This document shows positions 7,619 to 45,285 of a stretch of DNA of 64,000 nt, piece by piece. The notes under the pieces are model-generated. The model had not been told where the DNA came from, did not search any database, and saw nothing but the letters and a program-made list of their open reading frames with translations. The position numbers were made by a program, and so were the translations under genes. Position 1 is the first letter of the stretch. The number at the start of each line of letters is the position of its first letter. Source of the DNA: Candidatus Aceula meridiana (GTDB lineage Bacteria > Omnitrophota > Gorgyraeia > Zapsychrales > Aceulaceae); the NCBI GenBank assembly GCA_030765185.1, contig JAVCDE010000003.1, forward strand, positions 38 to 64,037, written 5' to 3'.

Positions 7619-7694
7619 AAGGCTGATTTTCCGCTTTTATTAAGGCACTATCCGTTTGGAAATTAAAGAGTTAGACGAAAAGGAGTTTTTTAAA

Positions 7695-11903: not shown

Positions 11904-11905
11904 TT

Positions 11906-12871
11906 ATGTTTCGCTATATTATTAAAAGAATTCTAATTTCTATTCCGCTTCTTTTAGGGATTTCTCTTTTTACGTTTGTTCTTATTCAGCTAACGCCGGG
12001 AAACTTCTTTGACACTTTAAAACTTGATCCTCAAGTTTCCTCTGAAACCATTGCCCATTACGAGAAACTTTACAACTTAGATAAACCGTTATTGCAGCAG
12101 TATGGCTATTGGCTTAAAAATGTTCTTCAGCTTAATTTTGGATATTCTTTCTACTACAACTGCCCTGTCGTCAAAATTATTAAAAGTCGTCTTCTTAATA
12201 CGTTTATCCTTTCGTTTTCGGGCATGTTGCTCACATGGCTTGTAGCCATCCCCTTAGGAATCGTTATGGCTATTAACCGTAATCGATTTTGGGATAGATT
12301 TTTATCTTTTGGTGCTTTTATCTTTCTTTCGATTCCGGGTTTCTTTTTAGCGATTTTACTTTTGTATTTTGCTTCGCATTATGGAGGGCTTCCCTTGGGA
12401 GGGATGCAGAGCGTTAATTTTGATAATTTTAATATTTTTGAAAAGATTATTGATGTTTTGCGACATCTCGTTATTCCGACCATTGTTATTTCTGTCGGCG
12501 CGATTGCTGGTTTGCAGAGAATTATGCGTGGCAATCTTTTAGAGGTTTTGCGTCAGCAATATATTTTGGCGGCACGTGCTAAGGGCCTGCCAGAAAACAA
12601 AGTGCTTTATAAGCACGCCCTTCGAAACGCAATCAATCCCATGATTACTCTTTTGGGATATCATCTTTCCGGGCTTTTAAGCGGGGCAGCTATCGTCGAG
12701 ATTATCTGTAATTGGCCGGGCATTGGTACGGTTATGTTAACTGCCGTCCGCGCTAAGGACCTTTACCTTGTCATGGCGAGTATGCTCATGGGAGGGGTGT
12801 TACTATTTTTAGGAAATCTTTTAGCCGACATCATGTTGGCTTGGGTAGACCCACGGATTCGCTATGACTAA
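11906..12871 (+). CDS. ABC transporter permease (OppB/DppB-like)
   Basis: BPD_transp_1 permease fold; operon context. Confidence 0.85.
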   Translation: MFRYIIKRILISIPLLLGISLFTFVLIQLTPGNFFDTLKLDPQVSSETIAHYEKLYNLDKPLLQQYGYWLKNVLQLNFGYSFYYNCPVVKIIKSRLLNTFILSFSGMLLTWLVAIPLGIVMAINRNRFWDRFLSFGAFIFLSIPGFFLAILLLYFASHYGGLPLGGMQSVNFDNFNIFEKIIDVLRHLVIPTIVISVGAIAGLQRIMRGNLLEVLRQQYILAARAKGLPENKVLYKHALRNAINPMITLLGYHLSGLLSGAAIVEIICNWPGIGTVMLTAVRAKDLYLVMASMLMGGVLLFLGNLLADIMLAWVDPRIRYD

Positions 12872-13964
12872 GAATGGAGAAAGTTTAAGTCAACTTCAAA
12901 TGGCTATGGCCACATTCAGAAAGAATGGTTTGGCTATGGGCTGTGTTACGATTCTTGCGATTTTATATTTTAGTGCTATTTTTGCAGATTTTTTGTCTCC
13001 GTATCTTTACGACAACGAGGACCGCAACTATTCCTATTGTCCGCCTATGAAAATTCATTTTATTGGCGAGAATGGAAAAATAGAGCGTCCTTTTGTATAT
13101 CGAATGTATTTTTCTTTTGATGAATTCCATAAAAGAATATACAAAGAAGATAAAACGCAGAAATATCCTTTAGGGTTATTTGTTAAGGGCAAGCCGTATC
13201 GATTCTTAGGCTTTATTCCTTTTGACCGCCATTTGTTTGGCGCTCAGAACGGAGGACGCATTCATCTTTGGGGAGCGGATTCCCGAGGGAGAGATCTTTT
13301 CTCTAGACTTTTGTGGGGAGGACGTGTTTCACTCTCGATAGGGCTTATTGGCGTTACGATTTCTTTTTTCTTTGGTCTTTTGATAGGAGGCATTTCCGGT
13401 TATTACGGTGGAAAGACTGACAATATTATTATGCGTATTTGTGAGATGATTATGATGATCCCATCTTTTTATCTCATGTTAGCTTTGATGGCAACCTTGC
13501 CACCGGGATTAAATTCCATCAAGCGGTATATGCTGATGGTAGCTATCTTTTCTTTTATCGGTTGGGCTTCTTTGGCACGCGTTATCCGCGGCATGGCTAT
13601 GTCATTAAAGTCAAGAGAGTATGTTTTAGCAGCCAAGGCTATGGGCGTTTCGGATATACGCATTATTTTTACACATATTCTGCCGCATACGATGTCGTAT
13701 TCAATTATTGCGGTTATGCAGTCTGTTCCAGGATACATTATCGCTGAGAGTGGTCTAAGTCTTTTTGGTCTGGGAATTCAAGATCCGTATGCCAGTTGGG
13801 GTAATTTACTTTCTGAGGCGATGGGCATTATTCAGATTACATTTGCTCCGTGGATTCTTTTGCCAGGTTTTTTTATTTTCTTAACAATTATTTGTTTTAA
13901 TATTATTGGGGATGCCTTGCGCGATGCCTTAGATCCTACGCTCAAAGCAGAGGGACGAACATAG
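12864..13964 (+). CDS. ABC transporter permease (OppC/DppC-like)
   Basis: Permease fold with N-terminal extension typical of OppC; operon context. Confidence 0.85.
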   Translation: MTKNGESLSQLQMAMATFRKNGLAMGCVTILAILYFSAIFADFLSPYLYDNEDRNYSYCPPMKIHFIGENGKIERPFVYRMYFSFDEFHKRIYKEDKTQKYPLGLFVKGKPYRFLGFIPFDRHLFGAQNGGRIHLWGADSRGRDLFSRLLWGGRVSLSIGLIGVTISFFFGLLIGGISGYYGGKTDNIIMRICEMIMMIPSFYLMLALMATLPPGLNSIKRYMLMVAIFSFIGWASLARVIRGMAMSLKSREYVLAAKAMGVSDIRIIFTHILPHTMSYSIIAVMQSVPGYIIAESGLSLFGLGIQDPYASWGNLLSEAMGIIQITFAPWILLPGFFIFLTIICFNIIGDALRDALDPTLKAEGRT

Positions 13965-14747
13965 ATGAAAAATATTCTTTCTGTTAATAATTTAACAATT
14001 CAGATCCTTGGGAGTCAAGGCTTTCAGCCGCTTGTTTCTAATATTAATCTTACGCTGCGAGAGCTTGAGGTCGTTGCTTTGGTGGGAGGCTCTGGCGGTG
14101 GAAAGACAAGCATCGGGTTTTCCCTTTTGCAGCTTTTGCCCATGGCCATGAAAATTACGCAAGGAGAAATTCTTTTTGAAGGCAGAAACCTTTTGGACCT
14201 AACGAATAAACAAATGCAAAGTGTTCGTGGCGGAAAGATTGGGATGGTTTTTCAAGAACCATTAAGTGCGTTTAATCCGGTTTTTAAAGTTGGCAATCAG
14301 ATTGCAGAAGTTTTAAAATATCATACAAATTTAAGCGCGGGCAAAATCAAGAATAAAGTTCATGAGCTCTTGGATGTTGTTGAGGTTCCTGATCCAAAGC
14401 GCGTGGCTCAATATTATCCACACCAGCTAAGCGGAGGTTTGCGTCAACGGGCGATGATTGCTCAAGCGATTGCTGCTTCGCCAAAAGTAATCATTGCTGA
14501 TGAACCAACTAGCAATCTAGATGTCACCATTCAGGCAAAAATTTTAGAGCTTTTTAAGAAGCTAAAGAAGGAGCTTAATGTTTCGCTTCTTCTCATTACG
14601 CATGATTTAGGCGTTGTCCGTTTCTTAGCAGACCGTGTTTTTGTACTACATGGTGGACGTATTGTCGAGGAAGGAAAGGCAGAAGAAATTTTTAATAATC
14701 CTAAGGATGAATTTACAAAAACTCTCATAAAGGTAATCGAAGACTAA
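13965..14747 (+). CDS. ABC transporter ATP-binding protein (OppD/DppD-like)
   Basis: Walker A GGSGGGKTS, LSGGLRQR signature, Walker B IIADEPTSNLD. Confidence 0.9.
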   Translation: MKNILSVNNLTIQILGSQGFQPLVSNINLTLRELEVVALVGGSGGGKTSIGFSLLQLLPMAMKITQGEILFEGRNLLDLTNKQMQSVRGGKIGMVFQEPLSAFNPVFKVGNQIAEVLKYHTNLSAGKIKNKVHELLDVVEVPDPKRVAQYYPHQLSGGLRQRAMIAQAIAASPKVIIADEPTSNLDVTIQAKILELFKKLKKELNVSLLLITHDLGVVRFLADRVFVLHGGRIVEEGKAEEIFNNPKDEFTKTLIKVIED

Positions 14748-15611
14748 ATGCTTTTAGAATTAAAAAACATCAAGAAATATTTTCCAAGCCATATTGGTTT
14801 TTTTGGTAAGGTTTCAAGTTTTGTTAAGGCAGCTGACGGCGTTGATTTGACTATTGTCGAAGGAGAAAATTTTGGCCTTGTTGGAGAATCTGGTTGCGGT
14901 AAAACGACTTTAGGTCGCCTAGCAATAAAGCTTTTATTGTGCGATTCCGGGGAGATTATTTTTAAAGGAAGAAATATTGCGAATCTTTCGGCGAAAAAAA
15001 TGCGTGTTTTTCGCCAAGACATCCAGATGGTTTTTCAGGATCCCTTTACCAGCTTAGACCCACGCTTTACTGTGCGTAATATTCTTTCTGAGGCAATGCA
15101 ATTTCAAAAAGAAAGCTTGGTTAAGAAAGAAGAAAGAATGAAAGAGCTTCTTCTTGCGGTTAGGCTCCCGGCTGATATTTTAGGCCGGTTTCCGCATGAG
15201 TTTAGCGGAGGAGAGCGTCAACGGATTGCCATCGCGCGTGCGCTTTCCATGAATCCAAAACTTCTTATTTTAGATGAAGCGGTTTCGTCTTTAGATGTGC
15301 TGGTTCAGGAAGAAATTTTAAATTTACTTTTAGATTTACAACAAAAATTTAATGTGACATACTTTTTTATATCGCACAATTTACGCGTTGTTAAGAAAAT
15401 TTGTCATAAGGTTGCGGTTATGCTTAATGGAAGAATTGTTGAGAGAGGTCCTTGCGGAGAGATTTTCAGTAATCCTTTGCATCCTTATACTAAACAGCTT
15501 TTAAGTGCTGCGATAGAATATAAGGTAGCGTCAAATCAAAAAAATATTGTTCTAAAGGAAAATGCAAAACTTATAGATCAGGGAGGAGGGCATTTTGTCC
15601 TTGAAAATTGA
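14748..15611 (+). CDS. ABC transporter ATP-binding protein (OppF/DppF-like)
   Basis: Walker A GESGCGKTT, FSGGERQR signature, LILDEAVSSLD. Confidence 0.9.
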   Translation: MLLELKNIKKYFPSHIGFFGKVSSFVKAADGVDLTIVEGENFGLVGESGCGKTTLGRLAIKLLLCDSGEIIFKGRNIANLSAKKMRVFRQDIQMVFQDPFTSLDPRFTVRNILSEAMQFQKESLVKKEERMKELLLAVRLPADILGRFPHEFSGGERQRIAIARALSMNPKLLILDEAVSSLDVLVQEEILNLLLDLQQKFNVTYFFISHNLRVVKKICHKVAVMLNGRIVERGPCGEIFSNPLHPYTKQLLSAAIEYKVASNQKNIVLKENAKLIDQGGGHFVLEN

Positions 15612-17916
15612 ACTGAAGCCTAAGATTTTAAAAAAAATAGATTATTTTGTTGGGATGCTCGCCATTGGAATTCTGGCGGGGCTTATTATTTTTTTGTGCA
15701 ATAGCGAAGTCGGTGCTTTTGATATTTGGTTGCATCTTAAAACCGGTGAGTTTATTGCTCAGCATAATTATATTCCAACGGTCGACATTTTTTCGTGTGC
15801 TGTTGGTGGCAATGTGTGGAACAATCACGAGTGGCTTTTTCAGCTGCTTGCACATTTTGTCTTTTCGGCCTTTAGCTATGATGGCCTCATTACAATGCAA
15901 GCAAGTGTCATTGCATTAACCATGCTTCTTCTTCTTTTCCTAGGGGATATCCGCGACAAGCAGCTTGGAACGGCGGTATTGTTACTTTGCGTTATGATGG
16001 TTTACCGAACCCGCTTTAATATTCGCCCTGATATTTTTAGCCTCCTTTTCTTTACTAGTTATATTTATATTTTATCGCTTTATATCGACCGGCGCTGGTC
16101 TCTTTTTGCCTTAGGATTTATTCAAGTCCTCTGGGTCAATACGCACGGATTTTTTATTTTTGGCCCCTTATTCATTTCTATAGGTTTGTTATCAGAGTTT
16201 TTAAAAAGACGAGTTAGATTGCCTTGGGAATGGAACAAGGTGGGGCGCCTAGAGGATAAAGAGTATTTTCATCTTAAAATTGCCTTGGGTGTGACTCTTT
16301 TGGCTTGTTTGTGCAATCCCCAATTTTTGCGAGGAGCTTTTTATCCTTTTCAAGTTTTGTTTCAGCTGGCAGGAGAATCAAGAGTATTTTTTAGCTACAT
16401 TATTGAGCTTAGAAAACCGATCTTGTGGAGCAACCTTTTTTCTACAAATCAGGGTTATTTTAAGGCGCTTATTATAATTTCTTTTTACAGTTTTATTGTT
16501 AATCGACGGAAGGTTGATATTTCTGCGCTTTTTCTTTGGGTCTTTTTCTTGATCCTTTCGCTACAGGCGTTGCGCAATATGGTCTTTTTTGCTTTTGTGG
16601 CATATTTTGTTTGTTTTGCTAATTTTTCACAAGTCAAACTGAAAGATGTTTTACCCATTTCTTTTAAGAGCGAAAAATTTCGTCTTTTGACAATGATACT
16701 ATTAAAGGTTTTATTAATCGCGTGGATTTTTCGTTTTGGAGATTCTATCTCTAGATCAGCGTATTATGATTTTGATAAATATGAGATGAAAAGTAGCTGG
16801 GGAGGGGTAAGCCTTCGCCGCTATCCTGAAAAGGCTGCTGATTTTATTCTTAAGAGCGGTATTAGCGGAAATCTGTTTAATGACTTTAACTCTGGAGCTT
16901 ATTTGATTGGTCGGTGTTTTCCTCAGGTTAAGGTGTTTATTGATGGTCGGACGGAGCTCTACGGGCCGGAATTTTTCAAGATTTATAAAAAAGTCTGGGA
17001 ATCAGGAAGTGATGAGTTGAGGGAAGAGGCTCTTGAAAAATATAAAATTACTGCAGCTTTTTTAAATTCGACAGATAAAAAGATTTCGAAAAGTCTTCTA
17101 ACATTTTTTTATGAAAATGAGCAATGGATTCCGGTCTATTTAAATTATGATGGGATGATTTTCCTAAAGGACATTTCTAAGAATCAAGAAATTATTAAAG
17201 AGCATCGATTAGATAGAAAAGGGTATCGATTTAAGAATATTGATTTAAACCGCATTGGCCCCAGAAAAGTTCCGCCATTTAAGCAAATTAAACGTGCGTA
17301 TACTCTGCAGTCTCTTGACTTAAAAGAAGAAGCGTTAGGTCAAGTTGAGGAAGGTTTGCTGATTTCTCCTGGACATTCAGATTTTTATTACTTGCTAGGT
17401 CGATTTTATTTCGAGGACAAGAGCTATGAAGAAGCTTTTGAGAATTTTCGTATTGCGACAATGATTACGCCGAGCGATTCGGAATTTAGATTTTATTTAG
17501 CTCTTTCTTATGCCGAGATTAATGATTATGAGAACGCTATTAAGCAATTTGAGTCTTTGATTAAGAATGGTGTCAAGAAGGCAAAGGTATTTGCTGCTTT
17601 GGCTAATACGTATGTTCTTGATAACCAGTATGACAAGGCGCTTGAATTTGCACAAAAGGCTTTGGACGTTAATCCGATGTATACTAAAATTTTAAAAGTT
17701 GCGGATACATTTTTTGATAAAGAAGAATTTATTTTAGCTCAAAAAATATGCCTAATGACTTTGAAGGTAAATCCTCGGTTAAGTGATGCGTATTATAAGA
17801 TAGGGCTTTGCCATCAAAAACTTAAGAATAAAGCTGCAGCTAATGAGGTTTTTAGAAGAGGGTTAAAGATTGATCCGACTAATGAGGAAATTAAAAAGCA
17901 ATTAAAGATCAAATAA
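15595..17916 (+). CDS. Polytopic membrane protein with C-terminal TPR repeats (possible GT-C-fold glycosyltransferase)
   Basis: About 12 TM helices in the N-terminal 520 aa, with an acidic/aromatic first loop (AFDIWLHLKTGEF); C-terminal 250 aa has TPR-like repeats; TTG start with GGAGG RBS. Confidence 0.5.
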   Translation: MSLKIELKPKILKKIDYFVGMLAIGILAGLIIFLCNSEVGAFDIWLHLKTGEFIAQHNYIPTVDIFSCAVGGNVWNNHEWLFQLLAHFVFSAFSYDGLITMQASVIALTMLLLLFLGDIRDKQLGTAVLLLCVMMVYRTRFNIRPDIFSLLFFTSYIYILSLYIDRRWSLFALGFIQVLWVNTHGFFIFGPLFISIGLLSEFLKRRVRLPWEWNKVGRLEDKEYFHLKIALGVTLLACLCNPQFLRGAFYPFQVLFQLAGESRVFFSYIIELRKPILWSNLFSTNQGYFKALIIISFYSFIVNRRKVDISALFLWVFFLILSLQALRNMVFFAFVAYFVCFANFSQVKLKDVLPISFKSEKFRLLTMILLKVLLIAWIFRFGDSISRSAYYDFDKYEMKSSWGGVSLRRYPEKAADFILKSGISGNLFNDFNSGAYLIGRCFPQVKVFIDGRTELYGPEFFKIYKKVWESGSDELREEALEKYKITAAFLNSTDKKISKSLLTFFYENEQWIPVYLNYDGMIFLKDISKNQEIIKEHRLDRKGYRFKNIDLNRIGPRKVPPFKQIKRAYTLQSLDLKEEALGQVEEGLLISPGHSDFYYLLGRFYFEDKSYEEAFENFRIATMITPSDSEFRFYLALSYAEINDYENAIKQFESLIKNGVKKAKVFAALANTYVLDNQYDKALEFAQKALDVNPMYTKILKVADTFFDKEEFILAQKICLMTLKVNPRLSDAYYKIGLCHQKLKNKAAANEVFRRGLKIDPTNEEIKKQLKIK

Positions 17917-18003
17917 AAAGCATTAATCTCTCGCAGGAATTCTCGGGTCTTAGTTAGGTGTTGGTTTCTTTCGGAGGGAGCCTTGTTTTTTGGAGGCTCC
18001 ACT

Positions 18004-18032
18004 TGCAAAAAAAGGTACCGTTAAGTATAATA
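18004..18032 (+). promoter_or_regulatory. Sigma70-type promoter for glgC (TTGCAA-N17-TATAAT)
   Basis: Hexamers and spacing read in sequence, 38 nt upstream of the glgC ATG. Confidence 0.5.
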
Positions 18033-18069
18033 AATTATTATTTAAAACGAATTTGAAAGAGGAAAAAAT

Positions 18070-19290
18070 ATGCGTGATATCTTAACATTTATTTTAGCCG
18101 GTGGAAAAGGAGAAAGACTGGATCCTTTAACTCGCGATCGCGCCAAGCCTGCTGTGCCTTTTGGTGGGATTTATCGGATTATTGATTTTACTTTGAGTAA
18201 TTGTATCAACTCAGGCCTACGTCGTATTTTTGTCCTCATCCAATATAAATCATTTTCTTTGCAAAAACATCTTTTAGCAGGGTGGGATGTTTTTTCAAGC
18301 CAGCTAGGAGAATTTATTGATGTTATTCCGCCTCAGCAGAGAGTAGGGTCCGACTGGTACCAGGGAACGGCGGATGCAATTTATCAAAATATTTATGCTA
18401 TTAAAGATTATAATCCGAAGAAAGTTTTGATTCTTTCCGGTGATCATGTTTATCGCATGGATTATGGCCGTGTTTTAAAATTTCATAATGATAAGAAAGC
18501 AGATGCTGTTGTCTGTTGCGTTAAAATGCCCAAAAGTTCTTCGATTCACTTTGGTGTCATAGAGGTAGACGCAAAAGGGCGCATTTGTGGATTTCAAGAA
18601 AAACCAGAAACGCCTAAGACTATCCCAGGAGACCCTAAGAGTATTTTTGCATCCATGGGTGTTTATCTTTTTGATAGAGAACCGCTTTTGAACGTTCTGA
18701 ATGAAGATTCCAAAGACGGAGCTTCGGCGCATGATTTTGGGAAAGATATTATTCCTAAAATGATTAAAGAAAAGCAGAAAGTTTATGCATATAATTTTTC
18801 TGATGAGAACGGCAAATCCCGCTATTGGCGCGATATTGGAACGCGAGACTCTTATTATGAGGCGAACATGGATTTGCTTAAGCATAGGTCGAATTTTGAT
18901 ATCTTTCGGAAAGCTTGGCCTGTGCGAACCTACCACGAGCAGTATCCTCCAATTAAAGTCTTAGATGACGGCATCGGCAAAGCTGCAAAGTCGCCTCTCA
19001 TTGTCGATTCTTTTATTTCCGGCGGGTGCGTGATCAAAGGAGCTAAAATTAAAAAGTCTGTTTTGTCTCCCAATGTGCACATCGAAAGCAACGCTGATGT
19101 GAGTGGCTCGATTTTCTTAGGAAGTTGTGTAGTGGGGAAAGGAGCAAGGATTAAGAATGCTATCATTGACAAGGAAGTTAATATCCCCCCTAAAACTGAG
19201 ATTGGCTATAATCTAGAATCTGACCGTGAGCGTTTTGCTGTAACCACATCTGGAATTGTCATTGTTCCTAAAAAAGCTTCATTTAAATAA
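18070..19290 (+). CDS. glgC: Glucose-1-phosphate adenylyltransferase
   Basis: LAGGKGERL...AKPAVPFGG N-terminal motif and C-terminal left-handed beta-helix region. Confidence 0.9.
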   Translation: MRDILTFILAGGKGERLDPLTRDRAKPAVPFGGIYRIIDFTLSNCINSGLRRIFVLIQYKSFSLQKHLLAGWDVFSSQLGEFIDVIPPQQRVGSDWYQGTADAIYQNIYAIKDYNPKKVLILSGDHVYRMDYGRVLKFHNDKKADAVVCCVKMPKSSSIHFGVIEVDAKGRICGFQEKPETPKTIPGDPKSIFASMGVYLFDREPLLNVLNEDSKDGASAHDFGKDIIPKMIKEKQKVYAYNFSDENGKSRYWRDIGTRDSYYEANMDLLKHRSNFDIFRKAWPVRTYHEQYPPIKVLDDGIGKAAKSPLIVDSFISGGCVIKGAKIKKSVLSPNVHIESNADVSGSIFLGSCVVGKGARIKNAIIDKEVNIPPKTEIGYNLESDRERFAVTTSGIVIVPKKASFK

Positions 19291-19311
19291 AGTTTAATAG
19301 AAAAAGGAAAA

Positions 19312-19343
19312 GGGCCGCAAAAATATTTTTGCGGCCCTTTTGT
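19312..19343 (+). terminator. Rho-independent terminator hairpin GGGCCGCAAAAATATTTTTGCGGCCC plus TTTTGT (copy 1 of an identical 36-bp element)
   Basis: Perfect GC-rich palindrome followed by a T-run immediately after glgC. Confidence 0.7.
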
Positions 19344-19733
19344 ATTATTACAATTAATTATTTTTTGTCTTTTAGTCTGTCCCACCTTGAGGGTGTGAAC
19401 ATTGGGTTTATAGTCGATTCAGCCCGCAGGGTTATTGTCTTTTTTTTGCACAAAAGACCAGAATACATGATTTTTTAAGAAAAAAAATAAAATCAGAACT
19501 GCCTTCCACTAAAATTCTTTAGGAAAGGTGCGTACTCTGACTTCCTTAAAGTTCTTAATTAAGAAAAAGTCAATAAACGCGGTTTTTCTTGTCACTTGCC
19601 TCGTGCGGACTTGTATCTTTTTTGAGAAAGCGTTTCCCCAGAACCCTCCAAAACCCCTTATATTTGAATATATATAGTTTATACTTTTATAGTCAGGATA
19701 GAGGCTATAGATACATATACGAAGAAGGGGAAC

Positions 19734-22700
19734 ATGTTTCACTATTACCATAAAAGTCATTTTTCCTTAAAAGTTATTATTTTAGCTGTAATATTTATAT
19801 TTACAGTTAATACGATTATTCCTTCTCAAGCCATGGCCCAAGGAGTGTTAGGGCTTCCTGTACCTGGGACTATGGTGTCTTTAAGCCCGGCCTTCACACC
19901 TACCATTCTTCGTGGAATAAGAGTCTATCCTGACAATTCTCTTAAATTCGACTTTATCGTCGATTCTGGTGATACTGGGCTTAAAGGCACTGCATTAAAG
20001 AATGAATCTGAACGTCTTATAAAATATTTCCTTGCTGCTCTAACTATTCCTGAAGATAACCTATGGGTTAACTTATCTCCCCATGAAAAAGATAGAATCA
20101 TCCCTGATTCTTTAGCCCAAACAGATATGGGCACTGATATGCTCGCTCAAGACTATCTTTTAAAACAAATCACAGCATCTCTAATCTATCCAGAAGATGA
20201 ACTTGGTAAACAGTTCTGGCAAAAGATCTATAAAAAAGCCTATGAAGAGTATGGCACTACTAAAATCCCGGTAGATACCTTTAACAAAGTCTGGATCATG
20301 CCTGAGCATGCTGAAGTCTATGTAAAGGATGATCGAGCCTTCGTAGTTGAATCAAAATTGAAGGTTATGCTGGAAGAGGACTACCTCGCGCTCGAGAAGA
20401 GCGCAGAATCCCGAGCAACCAGGAATGCCGCACAATCAAGCCATGCTAACAAGAAAGCTGATAATAAATTAGCCTCTAACATCGTCCGTGAAATTGTTAT
20501 CCCAGCTCTTGAAAAAGAAGTTAATCAAGGTAAAAATTTCGCTCAATTAAGACAAATCTATAATTCTTTAATCCTAGCCTATTGGTTTAAAAATAACCTT
20601 AAAAGTTCTATTGTCAATCAAGTCTATTCTGATCAACAGAAAGTTAAAGGTGTTGATGTTGAAAATGTTTCTCAAGATATTTATAAGCAATATCTAAAAT
20701 CTTTTGAAAAAGGTGTCTGTGACTTTATTAAGGTGGAATACGATCAATATGCACAAAAGAATATTCCTCGAAAGTATTTCTCGGGAGGGGTAGCTTTTGG
20801 CGATGGAGCTAGCAGCGCCATCACCTTTAAGAAAGCCAAAACCCCAGAAGGGCAAAAAGCCGCAAGCGTGATTGGAAAAGTTTTAGGAAATGCAGCATTC
20901 GTTATTTTAGTTACAGTAGTGCTAACCATATCTGCTTTCTCAGGCCCACCTCTGAAGGCTAACCAAGAAGTTAGCAACAAAAGTCAAATCCACAATGTAG
21001 ACTTAGGAAATTTCTCAAGCTTAGAGATTCAAAATAATTCTTTTCCTCTAGATCGATTTTCGAAAGAAGATGATTCCTTGAAAAGCTCAAAAAATAAAAA
21101 TTCTGAAGTTGTTAATCAGCAAAACATGACCGTTTTTTCTGACTATGAAGAAATCAACAAAAGGTATGGTTTCTCACCTAACAGCAATAGCCTGAAAGCC
21201 TTAAAAAAGCTTTCAAGAATGGGGCTTAATGTTTTAAGAGGGGAAAATGAATACAGCAATGGTGTTGCGGCCTGGCAGATTATAGCTCTTTCAAAGGAGC
21301 CAGAAGTCGCCGACGCTATTGCACAAGAAGATTTTGAACAATTTTATTACCGTGTTAATGATACAATTTTTGGTGGTAAAGGTTTTCGAAAAATTGAGGA
21401 TTTGCTCGGCGTTTGTGATCTTTACAATCATTTCTTAAAGCATCAAGACGATAAAGAAATGTTTTATTCTTCTAGATTTAAAGATGCTCTTAATTATGTA
21501 CGCACAAAGTTTCCTAAATTACAAATTTCCACAGAATCTGCTGTTCATGTTTTAAATTTAGCAAGAAATTTTGACGAAAAAGAAACCAAAAAAATTGTTA
21601 CTCAATTCGAATCTTCACAAGAGGGCCAAGAGATATTTATAAACGATTTGTTTGTTTTAGATTATTGTAGAATAAATCCTCGCTTTTATCATTTTCTTTT
21701 TAACCGAAAAGATCTCGAAAAAGAAGTTTTATCAACTATTTATCGCGAACCTGAAAAAGACCGCGAATCTGGAGTTTGGTATAAAAAGGAGCGGCTTTCT
21801 TCAGAAGAAATTAATCAATATCCAACATTATTTCTTTTGCGATCGTTGCTTGTTTATGAGTCCTTAAGAAAAGACAGTGATTTTAAAGACCAGATTATTC
21901 GCCAAATTGCAAGAATTTATTATCAAGACCACCAAGATCAGACAACTGAATATGGTGGCTATCTTTCTCTTAAGGACGGAAAAATTCTTTTTAACCTTCA
22001 GGCGGGGTATTCGCATTATAACGATACCTTTTCAACAAGAGATATTATGATGCCTATTTTTGCAGATTTTCATCTTCATCCTTTTGATGTCGTTGATGGA
22101 GAAATTATTCAAAATTGGTCTGGGCCAAGCGAGGCTGATTTTAAAGTGAGCATCAACGAAAACACCGGACTATCACAAGGGTTTGTTTTCTCAGCTTTTT
22201 CTGATCAAGACGATCAGGTCAAAGTTAATATTGATACGTATATTGGAGATTATTTTTTTAAACCGTTCTTTTTTAAGTTTCCTAAAAATCTCAACTTAGA
22301 CCTTGGAATCATTACCCTTCCCGACAATCAGGATTCTTTTAAGCCTGTAGAGGAATATTCTGGAAAAGATCTTAAAAGGATATGGAAAATTTTAAGAAAA
22401 TTTATTAAAGAAGAAAATAAACGAGCTCAAAAACCTGAAACTTCTAAAAAATTTGCTGATTTGGAAAAAAAAGCACAAAAGAATCCTGAAGATCTTTTTA
22501 TTCCAGAAAATCCTTATTATAAAAACTTAGCTGATAGCGTAAAGAGAGCTCCTGAAAAGTACTCAAAAGAAATAATAATGAACTTTTCTGACATCGCACC
22601 ATTTTTTAAGAATAAAAATAATTTTAGAGAAATCCTGAAAGATGCCATGAATAAATATCCCGAGCTTGCGATAAAATTCTGGGCTTACTCTTATTTTGAA

Positions 22701-25175
22701 AGCGCGGAACAACCTCAGATCTTACTTGATCTTATTAAAAAAGTTCCCGCATTTGGCCTTCAAAATTTTAATGCACGATTTAGATCAAAAGATCTTCGAG
22801 AAGATTTTGCAAGTGGACTCATTGAGATTCTTGAGAATAATCCTGATATTGTTTTTGAATATGCAGACAATATTATTCAACGAAATTCAGACTTTTTTCT
22901 AAACAAAGAGACTGGATTTTCTAAAAAACTTAAAGGAAAAACAGAAAATGAAAAAATTTCACTTCTCATTTCTTCACTAAGAATTCTTGCGGGAGCAAAA
23001 ATGCCTTACGATAAAGAGCATATCAACAATGCTGTTTCTTTGGCTATTGATTTTCAAGAAATTAGTGGCAACGAAATATATTACGATAAAAATACAACAG
23101 TTATTAATATCCTAAACGTTGAAGAGCAGTTCCTTAAGGCAGACGCAGAGGAGCTTGCGGAATTAGGCGGAGTTCCTAAAAATAAAATATTTTCCTTTAA
23201 AGGGGGAGAAGAGAGCAAAGAAGATGTTATTGAAGCCTTAAAGGCAAGTCAGGGTACACGAGTTATTCTTTTTAATGGACACAATACGCCAATCTTTGAA
23301 CGAGACGAAGTAGAAGACTATGGAATTGATTGGGAAATTTTATATGATGATTTAGTAGTCAAAAATAACTTTGCAACTGAAGAATATGAACAAATGATAC
23401 TTATTGAAAATTTAGATAAAATTAAAGAATATTTAAAAACAGTTCATGACCAAGATACATTTAAAAAGATTTCACATTTCTTAGACATAACAGCAAATCG
23501 CCTTGCCTTTGATTATGGAGTATATCTAAATTACGAAGAAATAGTAAATGCGCTCGGAGTTTCTGGAGATTTTAGCCAGACACGTCTCATTAACCTTAGT
23601 TGTGATTCATATAATCACAACTGGTCTTTTGTTAATTTTTTAAATCAAAATTTTTCTCAAAATCCACAAGTCACAGTTTCTGAGGCCGATAGAGGAGAGC
23701 CTGGATCAGGAAAAGAGGCCGATTACTTAAGGTCCATAATAAAAACAGTTAAAGAAGAACGAGGCAACGATCAAGAAAAGAAACCAATTCTTGGGCGACA
23801 CTTCTTGGCAGCAAAAACAGATGCCGTCCTCTCTAAACAGCATCCTGTTATCTTCTTTTTTCCAGGAAAACAAGTTGTCCGAGACCTATTTGTTAAATAT
23901 TTTGGTGAAAAAGGCACCGAGTATTACGATGAATTTTACAATAAAAATGATGATATTGACAATCTTCCAGAGGGTGGAATGGAGACAGGGTGGATTTTAA
24001 ACACCAAACTCAAAAGCCAAAATCCATTATTAGCATTTCAGGTCTCGTTATCTCCGAATAACAGTGTAAACGAAAACAATATTTTATTCGGAAAATTAAA
24101 TACAGATGTTTTGGATCAAGGAGAGGTTCTTGGAGCAAGCAAGGGAGATACTTTTTATCCTTCTGAATTTTACGACATGACAGCTGCAATGTTTACGGCT
24201 GTTTTAAGAAATGAAGATTTAGAAGTCCTTACTGAGAATGGAGGAAAACAACTTTTAGTTGAGCGTGTTGAAGCTCCCCAAAAAGCATCGAGTAGCCAAG
24301 CTGCATCTTCTGTTATTCGGAGCGAAGATGGAAAGCTCGAGATTCAAAAGCTTCCAAATTTAAAGCAAGTAAAAGATGCATCAAAAAAATCTATCATTAT
24401 AAAAGAAAACCAAGGACAACCAAGCCAAGGCCTTGCCCCTATGAAAAGTGAAAAAGAATTCTTGTTTTGTCATGCCATCATTCTTCGCAATAAAACAACC
24501 GATAAATATGTATTCTTGCATTTAGCTGATGGATTAAAAGAAACTGGAAGCGAATTCTTAGCCCGAATCAATAATACTCAAACACAAAAAACAACTGAAA
24601 ATAAAAAATTTGGAGAATTAACTTTTGGAGAACTCTTAGAATCTCTAGGAAAGGGCGAAAAAGAAGCTATTTATCTAGCTCGCAATAAAGCAGAGGCAAA
24701 AAAATCAGAAGAATATCTATCAAATAAATTTAATATTAAAACATCACAATTTGTCGAAATCACTGGGAAAAATCTTGTTTCTTGGAATATGATTTTTGAG
24801 CCAGAAATAAATGAAATTATTGTCTATGGGGGCAGAGAAGCTTATAGCTTTCAAGCTTTTGCTGAATCTTCAGAAGAAAATGTTAAAAATAGAAGCGCTA
24901 AAAAAACTGCATCATCCAAGATTACATCTACAGGTGGTATCGACTTTAATGCTGAAAACATGAACGTTACAACTAAAGGCGATCAAATTAATTTTAATGT
25001 TCCAATCGATATGCAAAATATTAGCTCAAGTAGCATTGAAGGTTTTGTGCCGATTATTATTAATATTACTCCTGTGACAAATTTTATAGGTCTTCTAGGC
25101 CTTGATGATACGGACAAAAAGGATGCCGAACAGATTAGTTATATATCTGAACTCATAGGAGATAAGCAATCTTGA
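19734..25175 (+). CDS. Giant hypothetical protein (1813 aa): signal peptide plus one internal TM helix, otherwise unrecognisable
   Basis: Uninterrupted 5.4-kb ORF; N-terminal signal-like segment ending AMAQG; hydrophobic helix near residue 375-395; Lys/Glu/Asn-rich remainder. Confidence 0.6.
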   Translation: MFHYYHKSHFSLKVIILAVIFIFTVNTIIPSQAMAQGVLGLPVPGTMVSLSPAFTPTILRGIRVYPDNSLKFDFIVDSGDTGLKGTALKNESERLIKYFLAALTIPEDNLWVNLSPHEKDRIIPDSLAQTDMGTDMLAQDYLLKQITASLIYPEDELGKQFWQKIYKKAYEEYGTTKIPVDTFNKVWIMPEHAEVYVKDDRAFVVESKLKVMLEEDYLALEKSAESRATRNAAQSSHANKKADNKLASNIVREIVIPALEKEVNQGKNFAQLRQIYNSLILAYWFKNNLKSSIVNQVYSDQQKVKGVDVENVSQDIYKQYLKSFEKGVCDFIKVEYDQYAQKNIPRKYFSGGVAFGDGASSAITFKKAKTPEGQKAASVIGKVLGNAAFVILVTVVLTISAFSGPPLKANQEVSNKSQIHNVDLGNFSSLEIQNNSFPLDRFSKEDDSLKSSKNKNSEVVNQQNMTVFSDYEEINKRYGFSPNSNSLKALKKLSRMGLNVLRGENEYSNGVAAWQIIALSKEPEVADAIAQEDFEQFYYRVNDTIFGGKGFRKIEDLLGVCDLYNHFLKHQDDKEMFYSSRFKDALNYVRTKFPKLQISTESAVHVLNLARNFDEKETKKIVTQFESSQEGQEIFINDLFVLDYCRINPRFYHFLFNRKDLEKEVLSTIYREPEKDRESGVWYKKERLSSEEINQYPTLFLLRSLLVYESLRKDSDFKDQIIRQIARIYYQDHQDQTTEYGGYLSLKDGKILFNLQAGYSHYNDTFSTRDIMMPIFADFHLHPFDVVDGEIIQNWSGPSEADFKVSINENTGLSQGFVFSAFSDQDDQVKVNIDTYIGDYFFKPFFFKFPKNLNLDLGIITLPDNQDSFKPVEEYSGKDLKRIWKILRKFIKEENKRAQKPETSKKFADLEKKAQKNPEDLFIPENPYYKNLADSVKRAPEKYSKEIIMNFSDIAPFFKNKNNFREILKDAMNKYPELAIKFWAYSYFESAEQPQILLDLIKKVPAFGLQNFNARFRSKDLREDFASGLIEILENNPDIVFEYADNIIQRNSDFFLNKETGFSKKLKGKTENEKISLLISSLRILAGAKMPYDKEHINNAVSLAIDFQEISGNEIYYDKNTTVINILNVEEQFLKADAEELAELGGVPKNKIFSFKGGEESKEDVIEALKASQGTRVILFNGHNTPIFERDEVEDYGIDWEILYDDLVVKNNFATEEYEQMILIENLDKIKEYLKTVHDQDTFKKISHFLDITANRLAFDYGVYLNYEEIVNALGVSGDFSQTRLINLSCDSYNHNWSFVNFLNQNFSQNPQVTVSEADRGEPGSGKEADYLRSIIKTVKEERGNDQEKKPILGRHFLAAKTDAVLSKQHPVIFFFPGKQVVRDLFVKYFGEKGTEYYDEFYNKNDDIDNLPEGGMETGWILNTKLKSQNPLLAFQVSLSPNNSVNENNILFGKLNTDVLDQGEVLGASKGDTFYPSEFYDMTAAMFTAVLRNEDLEVLTENGGKQLLVERVEAPQKASSSQAASSVIRSEDGKLEIQKLPNLKQVKDASKKSIIIKENQGQPSQGLAPMKSEKEFLFCHAIILRNKTTDKYVFLHLADGLKETGSEFLARINNTQTQKTTENKKFGELTFGELLESLGKGEKEAIYLARNKAEAKKSEEYLSNKFNIKTSQFVEITGKNLVSWNMIFEPEINEIIVYGGREAYSFQAFAESSEENVKNRSAKKTASSKITSTGGIDFNAENMNVTTKGDQINFNVPIDMQNISSSSIEGFVPIIINITPVTNFIGLLGLDDTDKKDAEQISYISELIGDKQS

Positions 25176-25207
25176 TTAAGAAAAAAGAAACGGTTAAGAC
25201 ATAAAAA

Positions 25208-25239
25208 GGGCCGCAAAAATATTTTTGCGGCCCTTTTGT
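25208..25239. terminator. Bidirectional rho-independent terminator, identical copy 2 of the 36-bp hairpin element
   Basis: Same palindrome and flanks as at 19312; lies between convergent genes (giant ORF on + and etfA on -). Confidence 0.7.
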
Positions 25240-25255
25240 CTATAAACTAAAATTT

Positions 25256-26452
25256 TTATTTGTTTAATGCTTTTTTAAATTTTGCGGTTAAAAGAGGAAC
25301 AACCTTAAATAAGTCTCCGACAATACCATAGTTGGCAACGGTAAAAATTGGAGCGCTAGAATCTTGGTTGATCGCAATGATGATGTCAGCGGATTGCATT
25401 CCAACAAGATGCTGAATTTGCCCGGAGATACCGCAGGCGATATAAATTTTTGGACAAACTGTTTTTCCTGTTTGGCCTACTTGGTGGGAGTAAGGCATCC
25501 ATCCGGCATCAACGGCTGCACGCGAAGATCCAACAGCCCCTCCTAAAACTTTAGCTAATTCTTCAATAATTTCAAAATTTTCTGGGCTCTTCATGCCACG
25601 TCCACCGGAAACAATAATGTTGGCCTCGGCAATATTAATTGTTGAGGTCACTTCTTCGACAATATCTAAAATTTTAGTACGTGATGCCAAAAGCGTTTTT
25701 GGGACTTCTTCAACAATAACTTCGCCTTTACGGCTCGTATCAATTTCAGCTTCTTTAAAAACTTTATGACGAACCGTAGCCATTTGAGGACGATGGTTTT
25801 TGCTTAAAATTGTAGCCATGATGTTTCCACCAAAAGCTGGTCGTGTTTGAAGCAAGAATTTTTCTTTTTCATCAATATCAAGACCGGTGCAATCTGCGGT
25901 TAAGCCTGTATGAAGCTTAACGGCAACACGAGAAATAAGAGAGCGTCCCATAAAAGTGGCACCGCATAAAAATATTTCTGGTCTATGTTTGCGAAGAAGA
26001 TTGACTAAAACATTTGTGTAAGGCTCATCTAAAAAGTTTTCTAGCTCAGGACTATCAACAACATAGACTTTATTCGCACCACGATGAATAAGCTCTTGAA
26101 GATTGTTTTTGATATTATGACCAAGGACAACGCAGCAAACTTCTGTTTTTAATTTTTTAGCAAGCTCTTGAGCTTTTCCTAAAAGTTCGTAAGAAATAGA
26201 TTGGATAACGCCTTTTTTTTGTTCACCAAAAACCCAGATACCTTTATATTCTTCTAAGTTAGGTGTTTTTCCGCTGTCGCGTTTTAATTCAATGGCATCA
26301 AATTTACAAGAATCCACACAAGCGCCGCAAAGCGTACATTTATCAAGATCAATGACAGCTTTTTTGCTGCTCATCTCAATGGCGGCAAAAGGGCATACCT
26401 TAACGCATAAGGTGCATCCGGTACATTTATCATTAATTACTTTGATGCTCAT
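25256..26452 (-). CDS. etfA: Electron transfer flavoprotein alpha subunit with N-terminal 2x[4Fe-4S] ferredoxin domain
   Basis: Two CxxCxxCxxxCP motifs in the first 60 aa, then the EtfA FAD-binding domain (CGISGQIQHLVGM...). Confidence 0.85.
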   Translation of the reverse strand: MSIKVINDKCTGCTLCVKVCPFAAIEMSSKKAVIDLDKCTLCGACVDSCKFDAIELKRDSGKTPNLEEYKGIWVFGEQKKGVIQSISYELLGKAQELAKKLKTEVCCVVLGHNIKNNLQELIHRGANKVYVVDSPELENFLDEPYTNVLVNLLRKHRPEIFLCGATFMGRSLISRVAVKLHTGLTADCTGLDIDEKEKFLLQTRPAFGGNIMATILSKNHRPQMATVRHKVFKEAEIDTSRKGEVIVEEVPKTLLASRTKILDIVEEVTSTINIAEANIIVSGGRGMKSPENFEIIEELAKVLGGAVGSSRAAVDAGWMPYSHQVGQTGKTVCPKIYIACGISGQIQHLVGMQSADIIIAINQDSSAPIFTVANYGIVGDLFKVVPLLTAKFKKALNK

Positions 26453-27234
26453 GAATTTAACCTATCTTTCAAAGCCTCAACGAGCTTGGTGGCTACATCT
26501 TCGGGCTCGCCTTCAAAAACTTCACCCCTGGGCCTTGGAGGAGGTGTAAAGATTTTCGAAACCCACGTCGGCGATCCAGTCAATCCCAAACGAGCTTCGT
26601 CAATATCAAGGTCAATCGCCTTCCAGGAAACAATTTCTGCTTTTTTAGCTTTCATGCGGCCTTTAAGAGAAGGGATGCGTGGTTCATTGATTTCTTTAAC
26701 AACTGTAAAAAGGCAAGGAAGAGAAGTCTTAACGATCTCAAATCCTTCTTCAGTCATGCGTTCGACTTGAGCAGATTTTTCATCGGCTTCTTCAATTTTT
26801 TTAACATAAGTAACTTGAGGGATGTCTAATTGTGTGGCAATGCCAGGACCGACTTGAGCCGTATCGCCATCGGATGCCTGCTTTCCGCAAAGGATGATAT
26901 CAAAGTTTTTAATTTTTTGGATAGCCTTAGCGAGCGTATAGCCTGTAGCGAGTGTATCACTTCCGGCAAAAGCACGGTCACTAACAAGGTAAGCCTCATC
27001 ACAGCCCATTGAAATAGCTTCACGTAAAGCAGCTTCTGCCTGAGGTGGGCCCATCGTTAAAACAACAGTTTTTCCGCCGAATTTCTCCTTAAGGCGCACA
27101 CCTTCCTCGATGGCGTATGTGTCAAAAGGATTAATAATTGACTCAACACCTTCGCGGATCAAAGTATTTGTTTCGGGATCAATTCTAACTTGGGTTGTAT
27201 CAGGAACTTGCTTTATGCAAACAATGATATTCAT
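26449..27234 (-). CDS. etfB: Electron transfer flavoprotein beta subunit
   Basis: MNIIVCIKQVPD N-terminus, typical EtfB/FixA. Confidence 0.9.
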   Translation of the reverse strand: MNIIVCIKQVPDTTQVRIDPETNTLIREGVESIINPFDTYAIEEGVRLKEKFGGKTVVLTMGPPQAEAALREAISMGCDEAYLVSDRAFAGSDTLATGYTLAKAIQKIKNFDIILCGKQASDGDTAQVGPGIATQLDIPQVTYVKKIEEADEKSAQVERMTEEGFEIVKTSLPCLFTVVKEINEPRIPSLKGRMKAKKAEIVSWKAIDLDIDEARLGLTGSPTWVSKIFTPPPRPRGEVFEGEPEDVATKLVEALKDRLNS

Positions 27235-27236
27235 AA

Positions 27237-28388
27237 TTATATTTTTGATTGTTTGATGAGTTCAAGCGCAATAATATTTCTTTGAATTTGGTTTGTGCCT
27301 TCGTAAATTTGAGTTATTTTAGCATCGCGCATATATTTTTCAACAGGATATTCTTTGCAATATCCGTAGCCGCCAAAAATTTGGACAGCATCTACGGTAA
27401 CTTTCATAGCAACATCCGAGGCATACATTTTGGCCATGGATGATTCTTTAGTGATGCTTTTGACGCCAGCATCAATCTGACGAGCAGAAGCGTATATCAG
27501 TGCGCGGGCAGCTTCAATCTCTGTGGCCATATCCGCAAGCATAAACTGAATACCCTGGAAGCTTGAGATGGATTTTCCAAATTGTTTTCTTTCTTGAGAA
27601 TATTTGAGGGCTGCTTCAAATGCGCCTTGGGCGATTCCAAGAGCTTGAGCCCCGATACCTGGACGAGACTGATCAAAAGTTCTCATAGCTAATAAAAAGC
27701 CTTGGCCCTCGCGGCCAATTAAGTTTTCTTTAGGGACCTTACAGTCGGTAAAAATAAGTTCGCGTGTCGAGGACGCGCGAATACCAAGTTTTTCTTCTTT
27801 TTTCCCAAAAGTGAACCCTGGAGTGTCTTTATCAACAATAAAGATGCTAGCTCCGCGAGCACCCTTTGCTTTATTGGTCATGGCAACAATGGTATAAATT
27901 TCTGCGTCACCACCGTTGGTAATAAAATGCTTTGTTCCGTTTAAGATATAATGATCGCCGTCTTTTTTGGCTGTGGTTTGCATACCAGCGACATCCGATC
28001 CTGCGGCTGGTTCGGTAATGCCATAGGCGGCTAGTTTTTTGCCAGAGGCAATATCCGGAAGGTATCTTTCTTTTTGGTCGTCATTTCCAGCGATTAAAAT
28101 TGGCTCAGCGCCTAGGGCTGTTCCGGCAAAAGCTAGGGCAATCCCAGCACATCCCCGTGAAAGCTCTTCAGCTACGATACAAAGCTCCATCATCCCGCCG
28201 CCCATACCGCCGTATTTTTCATCAATATAAACACCGCAGATATCAGAATCAGCTAGGACTTTTACGATATCCCAGGGGAATATTTCTTTTTCATCATATT
28301 CAGCAGCAACAGGCTTGATTTTTTCTTCGGTAATTTCACGACAAAGGTCGCGTATCATTACTTGTTCTTCGGTCAAAAGATAATCCAT
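27237..28388 (-). CDS. Acyl-CoA dehydrogenase (short/butyryl-CoA dehydrogenase-like)
   Basis: ACAD N-terminal, middle and C-terminal domains (catalytic YEGTNQIQ region); ATG at 28388 with GGAGG RBS, the longer ORF-track start is unlikely. Confidence 0.9.
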   Translation of the reverse strand: MDYLLTEEQVMIRDLCREITEEKIKPVAAEYDEKEIFPWDIVKVLADSDICGVYIDEKYGGMGGGMMELCIVAEELSRGCAGIALAFAGTALGAEPILIAGNDDQKERYLPDIASGKKLAAYGITEPAAGSDVAGMQTTAKKDGDHYILNGTKHFITNGGDAEIYTIVAMTNKAKGARGASIFIVDKDTPGFTFGKKEEKLGIRASSTRELIFTDCKVPKENLIGREGQGFLLAMRTFDQSRPGIGAQALGIAQGAFEAALKYSQERKQFGKSISSFQGIQFMLADMATEIEAARALIYASARQIDAGVKSITKESSMAKMYASDVAMKVTVDAVQIFGGYGYCKEYPVEKYMRDAKITQIYEGTNQIQRNIIALELIKQSKI

Positions 28389-28705
28389 TTTGAGAGCCTC
28401 CTGTATATAAATATCTAATATAAAGACGTTTGTGAAACTGAAACATAGTACCACATGCAGACTAAGGAAGGCAATATTTTTTTTAAATTTTCATTCGTTA
28501 TTTTTAAAATTTAAAAAATATTTTTAGAGTTTCGATGTCTAACTAAAGAATATTTTTTTGTGAATCGGCGGTTGTTGTTACAGTAATTACTTCTGAAATT
28601 TATGAAAATTTTTAAAAGATGTTTTTAGGAAAGTGAGACGGTGTGGGTGGCATCTTTAGAGCAAAAACAGGGGCTATTTTTATTGATTTTTCGTCAATAT
28701 TGGCA

Positions 28706-40964: not shown

Positions 40965-41058
40965 ACTTAAGCGAGTTTCCTTGAGCTTCCCACCGCCTTG
41001 CTATCGGTATATATATAGTGTATACTTTTAATAACATTTTTATATTTTGGGGGTTTTT

Positions 41059-45245: not shown

Positions 45246-45285
45246 TGCCCAATCGCAAGCAATTTTACTTATATCATTTTATTTC

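Follow-up and report, generated by a model that had tools for sequence, protein, structure and literature searches.

A full-length member of a large Omnitrophota protein family with two conserved end modules, encoded at an accessory locus of Candidatus Aceula meridiana

What might a very long predicted protein that resembles no characterised family be doing, and is it an isolated orphan? The question is raised by a gene in a 64,000-nucleotide stretch of the genome of Candidatus Aceula meridiana (contig JAVCDE010000003.1, positions 38 to 64,037; hereinafter, the window), which encodes a protein of 1813 amino acid residues (hereinafter, the query). Omnitrophota, the phylum to which this organism belongs, are widespread, uncultivated, ultra-small bacteria that are believed to live on other cells; it is recognised that their large proteins pose a puzzle. 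The 1813-residue gene is a full-length member of a family defined by two conserved end modules, the N-module and the C-module; as judged from the matches, this family is very large, apparently undescribed, Omnitrophota-specific and modular. With moderate confidence, the product is interpreted here as a modular envelope protein in which the conserved ends would act as handles and the variable central part, the cargo, would be a metallopeptidase, encoded in an accessory cassette with its own promoter. The locus is thus of greater interest than that of an isolated orphan, being an entry to a large, unannotated, phylum-specific family with a cassette-like turnover that is clear from the comparative evidence.

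Conserved ends around exchangeable cargo

The open reading frame (ORF) at 19734-25175 is unbroken and is the longest in the 64-kb window, with the runner-up encoding 1132 residues. An earlier model-made interpretation of the DNA without database searches (hereinafter, the sequence-only reading) had called it the window's largest uninterrupted ORF, 5.4 kb long, and had described a Lys/Glu/Asn-rich product (K 9.2, E 8.1, N 7.1 %) free of adhesin repeats; both descriptions hold, given that no tandem repeats are detected in the gene at the DNA level and a Pfam scan of the protein detects no repeat families and no Ig, cadherin or RTX adhesin domains. Also recovered are its signal-peptide-like start ending in AMA before QG, its additional hydrophobic helix, placed near residues 375-395 and located here at residues 383-401, its AT-rich leader of about 390 nt and its identical hairpins on both sides of the gene. 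Searches of Pfam, NCBIfam and PDB sequences with the whole protein yield no meaningful match and, in particular, no full-length profile match to a characterised family; the sole sub-threshold Pfam match (Pfam and NCBIfam, E<=1) is MRAP (E 0.069), which lies over the internal hydrophobic segment and is unrelated to sorting.

The classification of the gene as an ORFan in the sequence-only reading nearly stands for the middle ~1,300 residues but fails for the first ~355 and the last ~80, which have more than 3,700 database matches. In a search of 5.8 billion proteins with 8,000 candidates scored, 3,754 match at E<=1e-3, and all named ones belong to Candidatus Omnitrophota. A genome-collection scan identifies at least 589 genomic loci that match the modules, all in metagenome-assembled genomes of Omnitrophota; several of these records are titled 'uncultured Planctomycetales' and are counted here as Omnitrophota because they include the assembly of the relative P0001, for which all of the closest named relatives are Omnitrophota. 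When the best 120 of the 3,754 matches are mapped on the query, residues ~1-355 are aligned by 118 of them, with 45-80 % identity, and residues ~1720-1800 by 97 as well; between these end regions, the best 120 matches are unrelated to the query and to one another. The features that define the family membership of the query are as follows.

19734-25175, plus strand: complete coding sequence, ATG start, 1813 residues and a stop codon
19734-19838, plus strand: signal-peptide-like segment, residues 1-35, with predicted cleavage between AMA and QG
19839-20789, plus strand: N-module, residues 36-352, ending in RKYFSGG, a family-defining conserved domain
24933-25133, plus strand: C-module, residues 1734-1800, GGIDFN...GFVPIIINITPVTNFIGLLGL, family-defining

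The N-module, of about 320 residues, is recognised by the motifs WVNLSP[YH]E ... LAQDYLLKQ ... RKYFSGG and has 48 invariant columns across 54 sequences, a conservation that is remarkable given that the cargo of these paralogs is unrelated; P0002, P0004, P0005, P0008 and P0011 have the closest N-modules (75-80 % identity) and bear cargo different from that of the query. The C-module, of about 70 residues, has the motifs GGID[FL]N ... PVIINI.P ... LLGL, four predicted short beta-strand-like stretches and a weaker hydrophobic segment (residues about 1770-1790), beyond which the tail is acidic, not basic. All 66 complete frames from 79 fetched loci contain a single N-module at the start and a single C-module at the extreme C-terminus, with lengths of 800-3,535 residues (median about 1,600), and no frame in the 79 loci has two N-modules. 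Neither module is covered by a Pfam or NCBIfam model or matches a PDB fold, and no description of either was found in the literature, the coverage of which is incomplete here. The possibility that the giant proteins are concatenated N...C units was rejected, with no frame or top match having more than one N-module, and so was an RTX or Pmp reading of 'GGIDFN', a motif that is present once and not in repeats.

The cargo, in contrast to the ends, varies widely across the family. Pfam domains detected in it include enzymes, namely GNAT, S-adenosylmethionine methyltransferases, PPDK, phosphoglucomutase, HMGL-like, GAPDH, PGK, class II aldolase, hexokinase, isocitrate and glutamate dehydrogenases, glycogen synthase and branching enzyme, as well as helicases, HEAT, NHL, LysM and HAD. 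The window itself contains a stand-alone, full-length phosphoglycerate kinase gene (7656-8882), and elsewhere P0051 bears a PGK domain as cargo; therefore, the family-borne enzymes appear to be additional copies rather than the housekeeping ones.

Family genes also occur in same-strand tandem arrays of up to five genes, e.g., at L079 244-16066, where five of them are packed in 16 kb, each with an N-module and, if complete, a C-module, and also in L036, L044 and L001. A tblastn search of the window with the N-module, the middle part and the C-module of the query identifies no paralog.

In every complete member, these comparisons reveal four parts in a fixed order: a Sec-type signal peptide, the ~320-residue N-module, an exchangeable cargo and the ~70-residue C-module. 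We infer that the two conserved ends would serve all members as common handles by which they are sorted, anchored or assembled at the envelope, whereas the specific activity of each paralog would come from its cargo.

An accessory unit between a glgC-like gene and etfA

The gene lies among ordinary chromosomal genes. It is preceded by genes for an Opp-type ABC transporter, a TPR protein and a GlgC-like nucleotidyltransferase, and followed, on the opposite strand, by genes for EtfA (with a ferredoxin domain), EtfB and acyl-CoA dehydrogenase. The glgC-like gene stops at 19290, leaving an intergenic region of 443 nt, of which 390 nt follow the first of two hairpins.

19308-19343, no strand assigned: left 36-nt hairpin, the perfect palindrome AAAAGGGCCGCAAAAATATTTTTGCGGCCCTTTTGT
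19344-19733, plus strand: leader and promoter region, 390 nt, GC content 0.346
19626-19637, no strand assigned: operator-like palindrome GAAAGCGTTTCC, which differs from GAAAnCGnTTTC at one position and lies 108 nt before the ATG
19680-19685, plus strand: TATACT, a -10-like box inside TATAGTTTATACTTTTATAGTCAGGA, conserved upstream of paralogs in the closest genome
25204-25239, no strand assigned: right 36-nt hairpin, an exact copy of the left one

The 36-nt palindrome is present in exactly two copies in the window, with no matches in 100 shuffles, and a scan of metagenome contigs for the exact hairpin identifies three contigs (L080, L081 and L082), each of which is syntenic with the window. 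The 183-kb contig L081, with flanks 69-80 % identical to the window at the nucleotide level, has the order opp, TPR, glgC, one hairpin and etfA, with 66 nt between the stop codons and no gene between them. In L080 and L082, the same site is occupied by another member of the family, longer than 2,143 residues, with an N-module 53 % identical to that of the query and an unrelated cargo. Thus, the unit of 5,896 bp at 19344-25239 (leader, ORF and one hairpin copy), which is bounded by the duplicated hairpin, is missing from L081, and the gene is accessory, with a presence/absence polymorphism at a defined site, as the sequence-only reading had supposed when it proposed a check of related genomes. 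The insert is also lower in GC content (0.345 compared with 0.394 in the rest of the window), and the GC content at third codon positions of the ORF is 0.26, compared with 0.29-0.36 in five other genes of the window.

The left hairpin, which corresponds to the single copy at the empty site of L081, is the ancestral bidirectional terminator in which the cassette lies, with the glgC-like gene on one side and etfA on the other. The locus has one attribute of a mobile cassette, namely a polymorphism at a defined site bounded by repeats (the empty site of L081 and the 36-nt direct repeat), and the arrangement points to insertion or exchange by recombination at the hairpin. The comparison of the empty and occupied sites shows that defined spots gain or exchange genes of this family. 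No recombinase is encoded among the neighbours scanned (10146-19290 and 25256-28454, transport and metabolic genes). A 34-nt form of the hairpin is 100 % identical at L080 4583-4616, L081 9309-9342 and L082 12352-12385, where the flanking genes are only ~69-80 % identical; this conservation is unusually strong for a terminator, and the hairpin was seen only at this locus in the collection scanned.

The leader is only modestly AT-rich (GC content 0.346 compared with 0.394 in the remaining window), and conservation with the leader of the different paralog in L080 and L082 extends over ~90 nt at its start and ~110 nt at its end; this paralog leader shares with the window a promoter block that includes the exact sequence GAAAGCGCTTTC. 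An Rfam scan of the leader detects no family at threshold, and the sub-threshold matches are confined to the hairpin. The palindrome GAAAnCGnTTTC has 21 exact sites in 1.26 Mb of family loci, 17 of them no more than 250 nt upstream of a family gene; with up to one mismatch, the palindrome is found in 31 of 93 upstream regions, compared with 0.019 expected per 250 nt, and TATACTT is found in 33 of 93 upstream regions (-150 to -1), compared with none of 93 control regions. The recurrence of the TATACT box and the operator-like palindrome upstream of paralogs in other genomes bears out the earlier proposal that the gene has its own promoter region. The cassette brings along its own promoter with an operator-like palindrome common to many paralogs, which suggests regulation by a palindrome-binding factor and makes the palindrome a way into the regulation of the family genes.

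An exact copy of the palindrome is also present elsewhere in the window (45203-45250, AGAAAGCGCTTTC), where it directly adjoins a perfect TTGACA-N17-TATACT promoter that belongs to a Colicin-V-production (CvpA-like) gene; therefore, it appears to be a promoter-associated operator in this organism that is not exclusive to the family. The listed GTG start of the CvpA-like gene, at 45235, is probably inside the promoter, the true start likely being downstream. At the end of the window, after plsY, there are three more copies at 63591-63602, 63730-63741 and 63920-63931, one exact (GAAAGCGGTTTC) and two with one mismatch (GAAAACGTTTCC and GAAATAGCTTTC); the first two are followed by a TATACT box (~63785-63790) and a new ORF from near 63915, with the third palindrome just inside that ORF, an arrangement that looks like another regulated promoter.

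The comparison of the loci also bears on the possibility that the long ORF is an assembly chimera or a chance read-through pseudogene. The unusual length and the lower GC content are the only observations in favour of this explanation. However, the frame is unbroken, the order of the N-module, cargo and C-module is the same as in the 66 complete relatives, the query is colinear with P0001 over residues 13-1530 and 1721-1797, residues 1531-1745 match P0002, P0010 and P0052, and the flanking synteny is intact. Given this colinearity and synteny, an artefact of assembly is very unlikely, and the explanation as a whole is hardly credible.

The cargo, its candidate metallopeptidase and the topology of the protein

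The part of the query between the two modules consists of the following segments.

20880-20936, plus strand: internal hydrophobic segment, residues 383-401 (VLGNAAFVILVTVVLTISA), with a K-rich N-flank and a hydropathy peak of 2.29
21141-24323, plus strand: near-orphan cargo block, residues 470-1530, matched end to end only by P0001 (59 % identity)
21816-22343, plus strand: predicted JAMM/MPN+-like metallopeptidase domain, residues ~695-870, with E739, H780, H782, S799 and D802
24324-24833, plus strand: pre-C module, residues 1531-1700, ~50 % identical to a subset of the family (P0002, P0010 and P0052)

A word-indexed search of 5.8 billion sequences with residues 402-1720 identifies two relatives only, P0001 and P0003; the latter is 46 % identical in the cargo and lacks residues 1107-1402. 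An exhaustive HMMER search of 1.84 billion cluster representatives with a profile of residues 470-1530 yields 72 proteins at E<=1e-3, almost all covering only residues ~520-860, and a family N- or C-module is present in two of the 67 new cargo relatives. The alignment of 26 diverse sequences, 21-32 % identical to the query, retains as its only invariant columns E739, H780, H782, S799 and D802, along with one Gly; the five residues are kept in the query, P0001, P0003 and ~58 distant relatives, and a conserved helical segment, 'LLR..L...AL', precedes the domain. The statement of the sequence-only reading that no enzyme motif could be recognised has to be abandoned, given that the cargo holds this conserved E...HxH...SxxD signature, which is of the JAMM/MPN+ type. 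The assignment of residues ~695-870 to the JAMM class is a prediction at the level of motifs, to which we attach moderate confidence. The query cargo is a rare multidomain block of ~1,300 residues, recognisable by a predicted JAMM/MPN+-type zinc (iso)peptidase, and the protein would most likely cleave peptide or isopeptide bonds in a metal-dependent manner at the membrane or envelope; if so, the query gene represents a new branch of JAMM-like metallopeptidases.

The same region could be viewed as part of a non-enzymatic structural or adhesin 'coat' protein, i.e., a helical scaffold in which the HxH and SxxD residues are structural metal binders or relics. Large parts of the cargo are predicted to be helical, and residues 929-1000 are modelled by AlphaFold2 (AF2) as helical repeats with a predicted local distance difference test score (pLDDT) above 90; giant Omnitrophota proteins have been proposed to function as a coat or adhesins (PMC10066038). 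Nevertheless, the catalytic-type residues are invariant at 21-32 % identity, as expected from selection on an active site, and the protein has none of the adhesin repeats or domains searched for, so that a purely structural role appears improbable.

Some further observations on the cargo are worth recording. Part of the pre-C module has a pLDDT of 75-86 in the otherwise poor AF2 model; the Foldseek matches of this model (TM ~0.05) were discarded as meaningless. The tripeptides GHN (1182-1184) and SCD (1289-1291) are seen by eye in a region covered by two sequences, and no clan-CD (caspase-like) His/Cys dyad is claimed. P0001 contains, at its residues ~441-750 (L001 10001-16465), after the transmembrane segment, an insertion with an HEMTH (HExxH-type) motif, as well as a HAD-hydrolase domain before the C-module, both of which the query lacks; these extras seem to illustrate module gain and loss within the cargo.

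The location of this cargo depends on the N-terminal part of the protein. The N-terminus of the query combines a positively charged n-region with a hydrophobic core (Kyte-Doolittle peak 2.37). In 89 complete relatives, the n-region has a net charge of mostly +2 to +5 (positive in 86 of the 89) and is followed by a strong h-region and by a conserved A-x-A-Q just before the N-module. The proposal of a giant surface protein in the sequence-only reading is thus upheld with regard to envelope targeting, and the surface location is plausible. The protein is most likely Sec-exported or membrane-anchored, and modular; we infer export from these N-terminal signatures.

Residues 383-401 could form a transmembrane helix or an internal signal-anchor. 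Among 121 family proteins (the 120 matches and the query), 28 have a hydrophobic segment after the N-module, with a mean net charge of +3.2 in the N-flank and -0.9 in the C-flank and with ends that are often A-x-A-like, so that this segment looks like an internal signal peptide rather than a stop-transfer anchor. This pattern suggests that the N-module was joined, on its C-terminal side, to cargo genes that had export signals of their own. In P0009, the internal segment (residues ~441-490) includes the lipobox-like FFQGC. A LysM domain is found as cargo in a paralog that has no internal hydrophobic segment, which argues for real export.

A different topology follows if residues 383-401 are a stop-transfer segment: with the N-module periplasmic and the JAMM-like cargo and C-module cytoplasmic, the protein would be a membrane-tethered cytoplasmic enzyme that acts on cytoplasmic substrates. 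JAMM/MPN+ enzymes are typically cytoplasmic, the query has two strong hydrophobic segments, and the internal one is likewise found in paralogs that bear GNAT or HAD cargo. Membrane-anchored topologies with cytoplasmic domains have been assigned to many long Omnitrophota proteins in a 2026 preprint (bioRxiv 10.64898/2026.06.07.730766). However, the positive N-flank and acidic C-flank in the 28 paralogs are the opposite of what is expected of a stop-transfer segment in that orientation, and the side of the membrane on which the C-module resides would depend on whether a paralog has the internal segment. On balance, this topology is considered rather unlikely.

The whole chain might instead cross the inner membrane, with the C-module acting as an outer-membrane anchor or secretion tag and the cargo peptidase attacking envelope proteins of a partner cell, i.e., a secreted or surface effector for interaction with a host or prey. 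We know of no zinc isopeptidases of the JAMM type that act as secreted effectors, no match to a known C-terminal sorting domain or autotransporter model is detected in Pfam or NCBIfam, the C-module is predicted by AF2 at low confidence, and no secretion-system genes adjoin the gene among the neighbours scanned. Compatible with an effector are the signal peptide conserved in the 89 relatives, the LysM cargo in the family, and the accessory status of the gene with the rapid turnover at the glgC-etfA site. Moreover, Omnitrophota have been reported as predatory or parasitic nanobacteria, and giant proteins with similar sets of enzymes have been predicted to be extracellular (PMC10066038; bioRxiv 10.1101/2023.11.21.568195; bioRxiv 10.64898/2026.06.07.730766). 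An effector of this kind is about as doubtful as the membrane-tethered enzyme.

The interpretation of the query as a modular envelope protein with a metallopeptidase cargo has to be weighed against several observations that do not fit it well. The signal-peptide-like charge pattern of the internal segment conflicts with a simple topology with the N-module outside and the cargo inside. Many paralogs without an internal segment bear enzymes of cytoplasmic type (GAPDH, PGK, PPDK and aldolase), and it is hard to picture GAPDH, PGK and PPDK cargo outside the cytoplasm. With regard to the JAMM-like domain, there is no Pfam match to JAB, Prok-JAB or RadC; a Pfam scan of ten distant cargo relatives likewise detects no family, including these three; a hidden Markov model search of PDB sequences with the profile of the module finds nothing; and hhalign against the MPN domain of CSN5 (a sequence checked as matching PDB entry 4f7o) gives a probability of 0.4 %, even though HxH and SxxD align with the catalytic residues of CSN5. 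The AF2 model of residues 700-1813 (1,114 residues) has an overall pLDDT of 55 and of 40-69 in the JAMM-like region, and neither this region nor the C-module is resolved in it. Finally, the palindrome adjoins the promoter of the unrelated cvpA-like gene as well and, accordingly, is not family-specific.

A broader hypothesis can be put forward tentatively, as a possibility rather than an expectation, namely that the two modules constitute a hitherto unrecognised, phylum-specific sorting, display or assembly system that places dozens of cargo proteins per genome at or beyond the envelope of these host-dependent cells, including complete glycolytic and central-metabolism enzymes. Such a system, with 'one enzyme per chain', would be the counterpart of the giant proteins of this phylum that combine many enzymes, with cassettes gained at hot spots and co-regulated via the shared operator. 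Thousands of Omnitrophota proteins with the same two end modules around interchangeable cargo amount to a simple, testable rule. If the modules are indeed sorting or anchoring handles, this would explain how Omnitrophota cells equip their envelope and would raise the question of why signal peptides precede metabolic enzymes such as GAPDH, PGK and PPDK.

The rest of the window includes PGK, SMC, RNase P RNA and tRNAs. Among the other genes, the one at 41047-43284 encodes a 745-residue protein with an N-terminal prepilin-type methylation motif (N_methyl) and CarboxypepD_reg-like domains, apparently a pilin-like or pseudopilin protein of unusually large size.

Comparison with known systems

The predicted peptidase domain of the query shares with the JAMM/MPN+ metallo-isopeptidases (Rpn11, CSN5, AMSH and prokaryotic JAB domains) the order of the key residues, Glu, then HxH, then SxxD. 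Unlike among these enzymes, no significant sequence or profile similarity to the query domain is detected, and the HxH-to-Ser spacing, 16 residues in the query, exceeds the canonical spacing of ~7-10 residues.

The architecture of the family resembles those of the cargo of type IX secretion systems (T9SS) with a C-terminal domain (CTD), autotransporters and polymorphic toxin systems in the combination of a Sec signal, variable passengers and a small conserved terminal domain, and also in the many paralogs per genome and the accessory distribution. The N/C-module family differs from all of these in having the additional 320-residue N-module and a cargo that includes housekeeping metabolic enzymes rather than toxins, adhesins or hydrolases; the ~70-residue C-module is also too short for a monomeric beta-barrel. 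The query has no Pfam or NCBIfam match to T9SS CTD, PEP-CTERM, autotransporter beta-domain or LPXTG models and lacks an arrangement of a sorting motif, a transmembrane segment and a basic tail.

The palindrome GAAAnCGnTTTC has the shape of LacI-family operators, i.e., the LacI/CcpA-type, cre-like sites with a central CG, and TGAAAGCGCTTTCC in L080, for example, agrees with the ideal cre, TGAAAGCGCTTTCA, at 13 of 14 positions. The site also abuts an unrelated promoter in the window.

The closest parallels come from the same phylum, namely the giant multi-enzyme membrane proteins of Omnitrophota, 'Archaeovorins' and related giant ORFs (bioRxiv 10.1101/2023.11.21.568195; bioRxiv 10.64898/2026.06.07.730766; PMC10066038). 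These proteins reach 10,000 residues or more, with many transmembrane helices and multiple enzyme domains, whereas members of the N/C-module family have 800-3,535 residues and are defined by exactly one N-module and one C-module; the query, with its 1,813 residues and two or three hydrophobic segments, falls well short of the length of Archaeovorins (more than ~10,000 residues), and the N- and C-modules are not described for the giant proteins in these three sources. The two groups have in common a signal peptide and/or transmembrane segments, mostly unannotated sequence, and an overlapping cargo of PPDK, HAD, GNAT, methyltransferase, radical SAM, HEAT, phosphoglucomutase and glycogen synthase. 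In addition, P0147 (Candidatus Omnitrophica, MSR77945.1), a partial protein of 4,930 residues, contains at residues 1924-2127 the same helical-plus-JAMM-like module as the query cargo; therefore, the same modules appear to be used in the giant proteins and in the N/C-module family.

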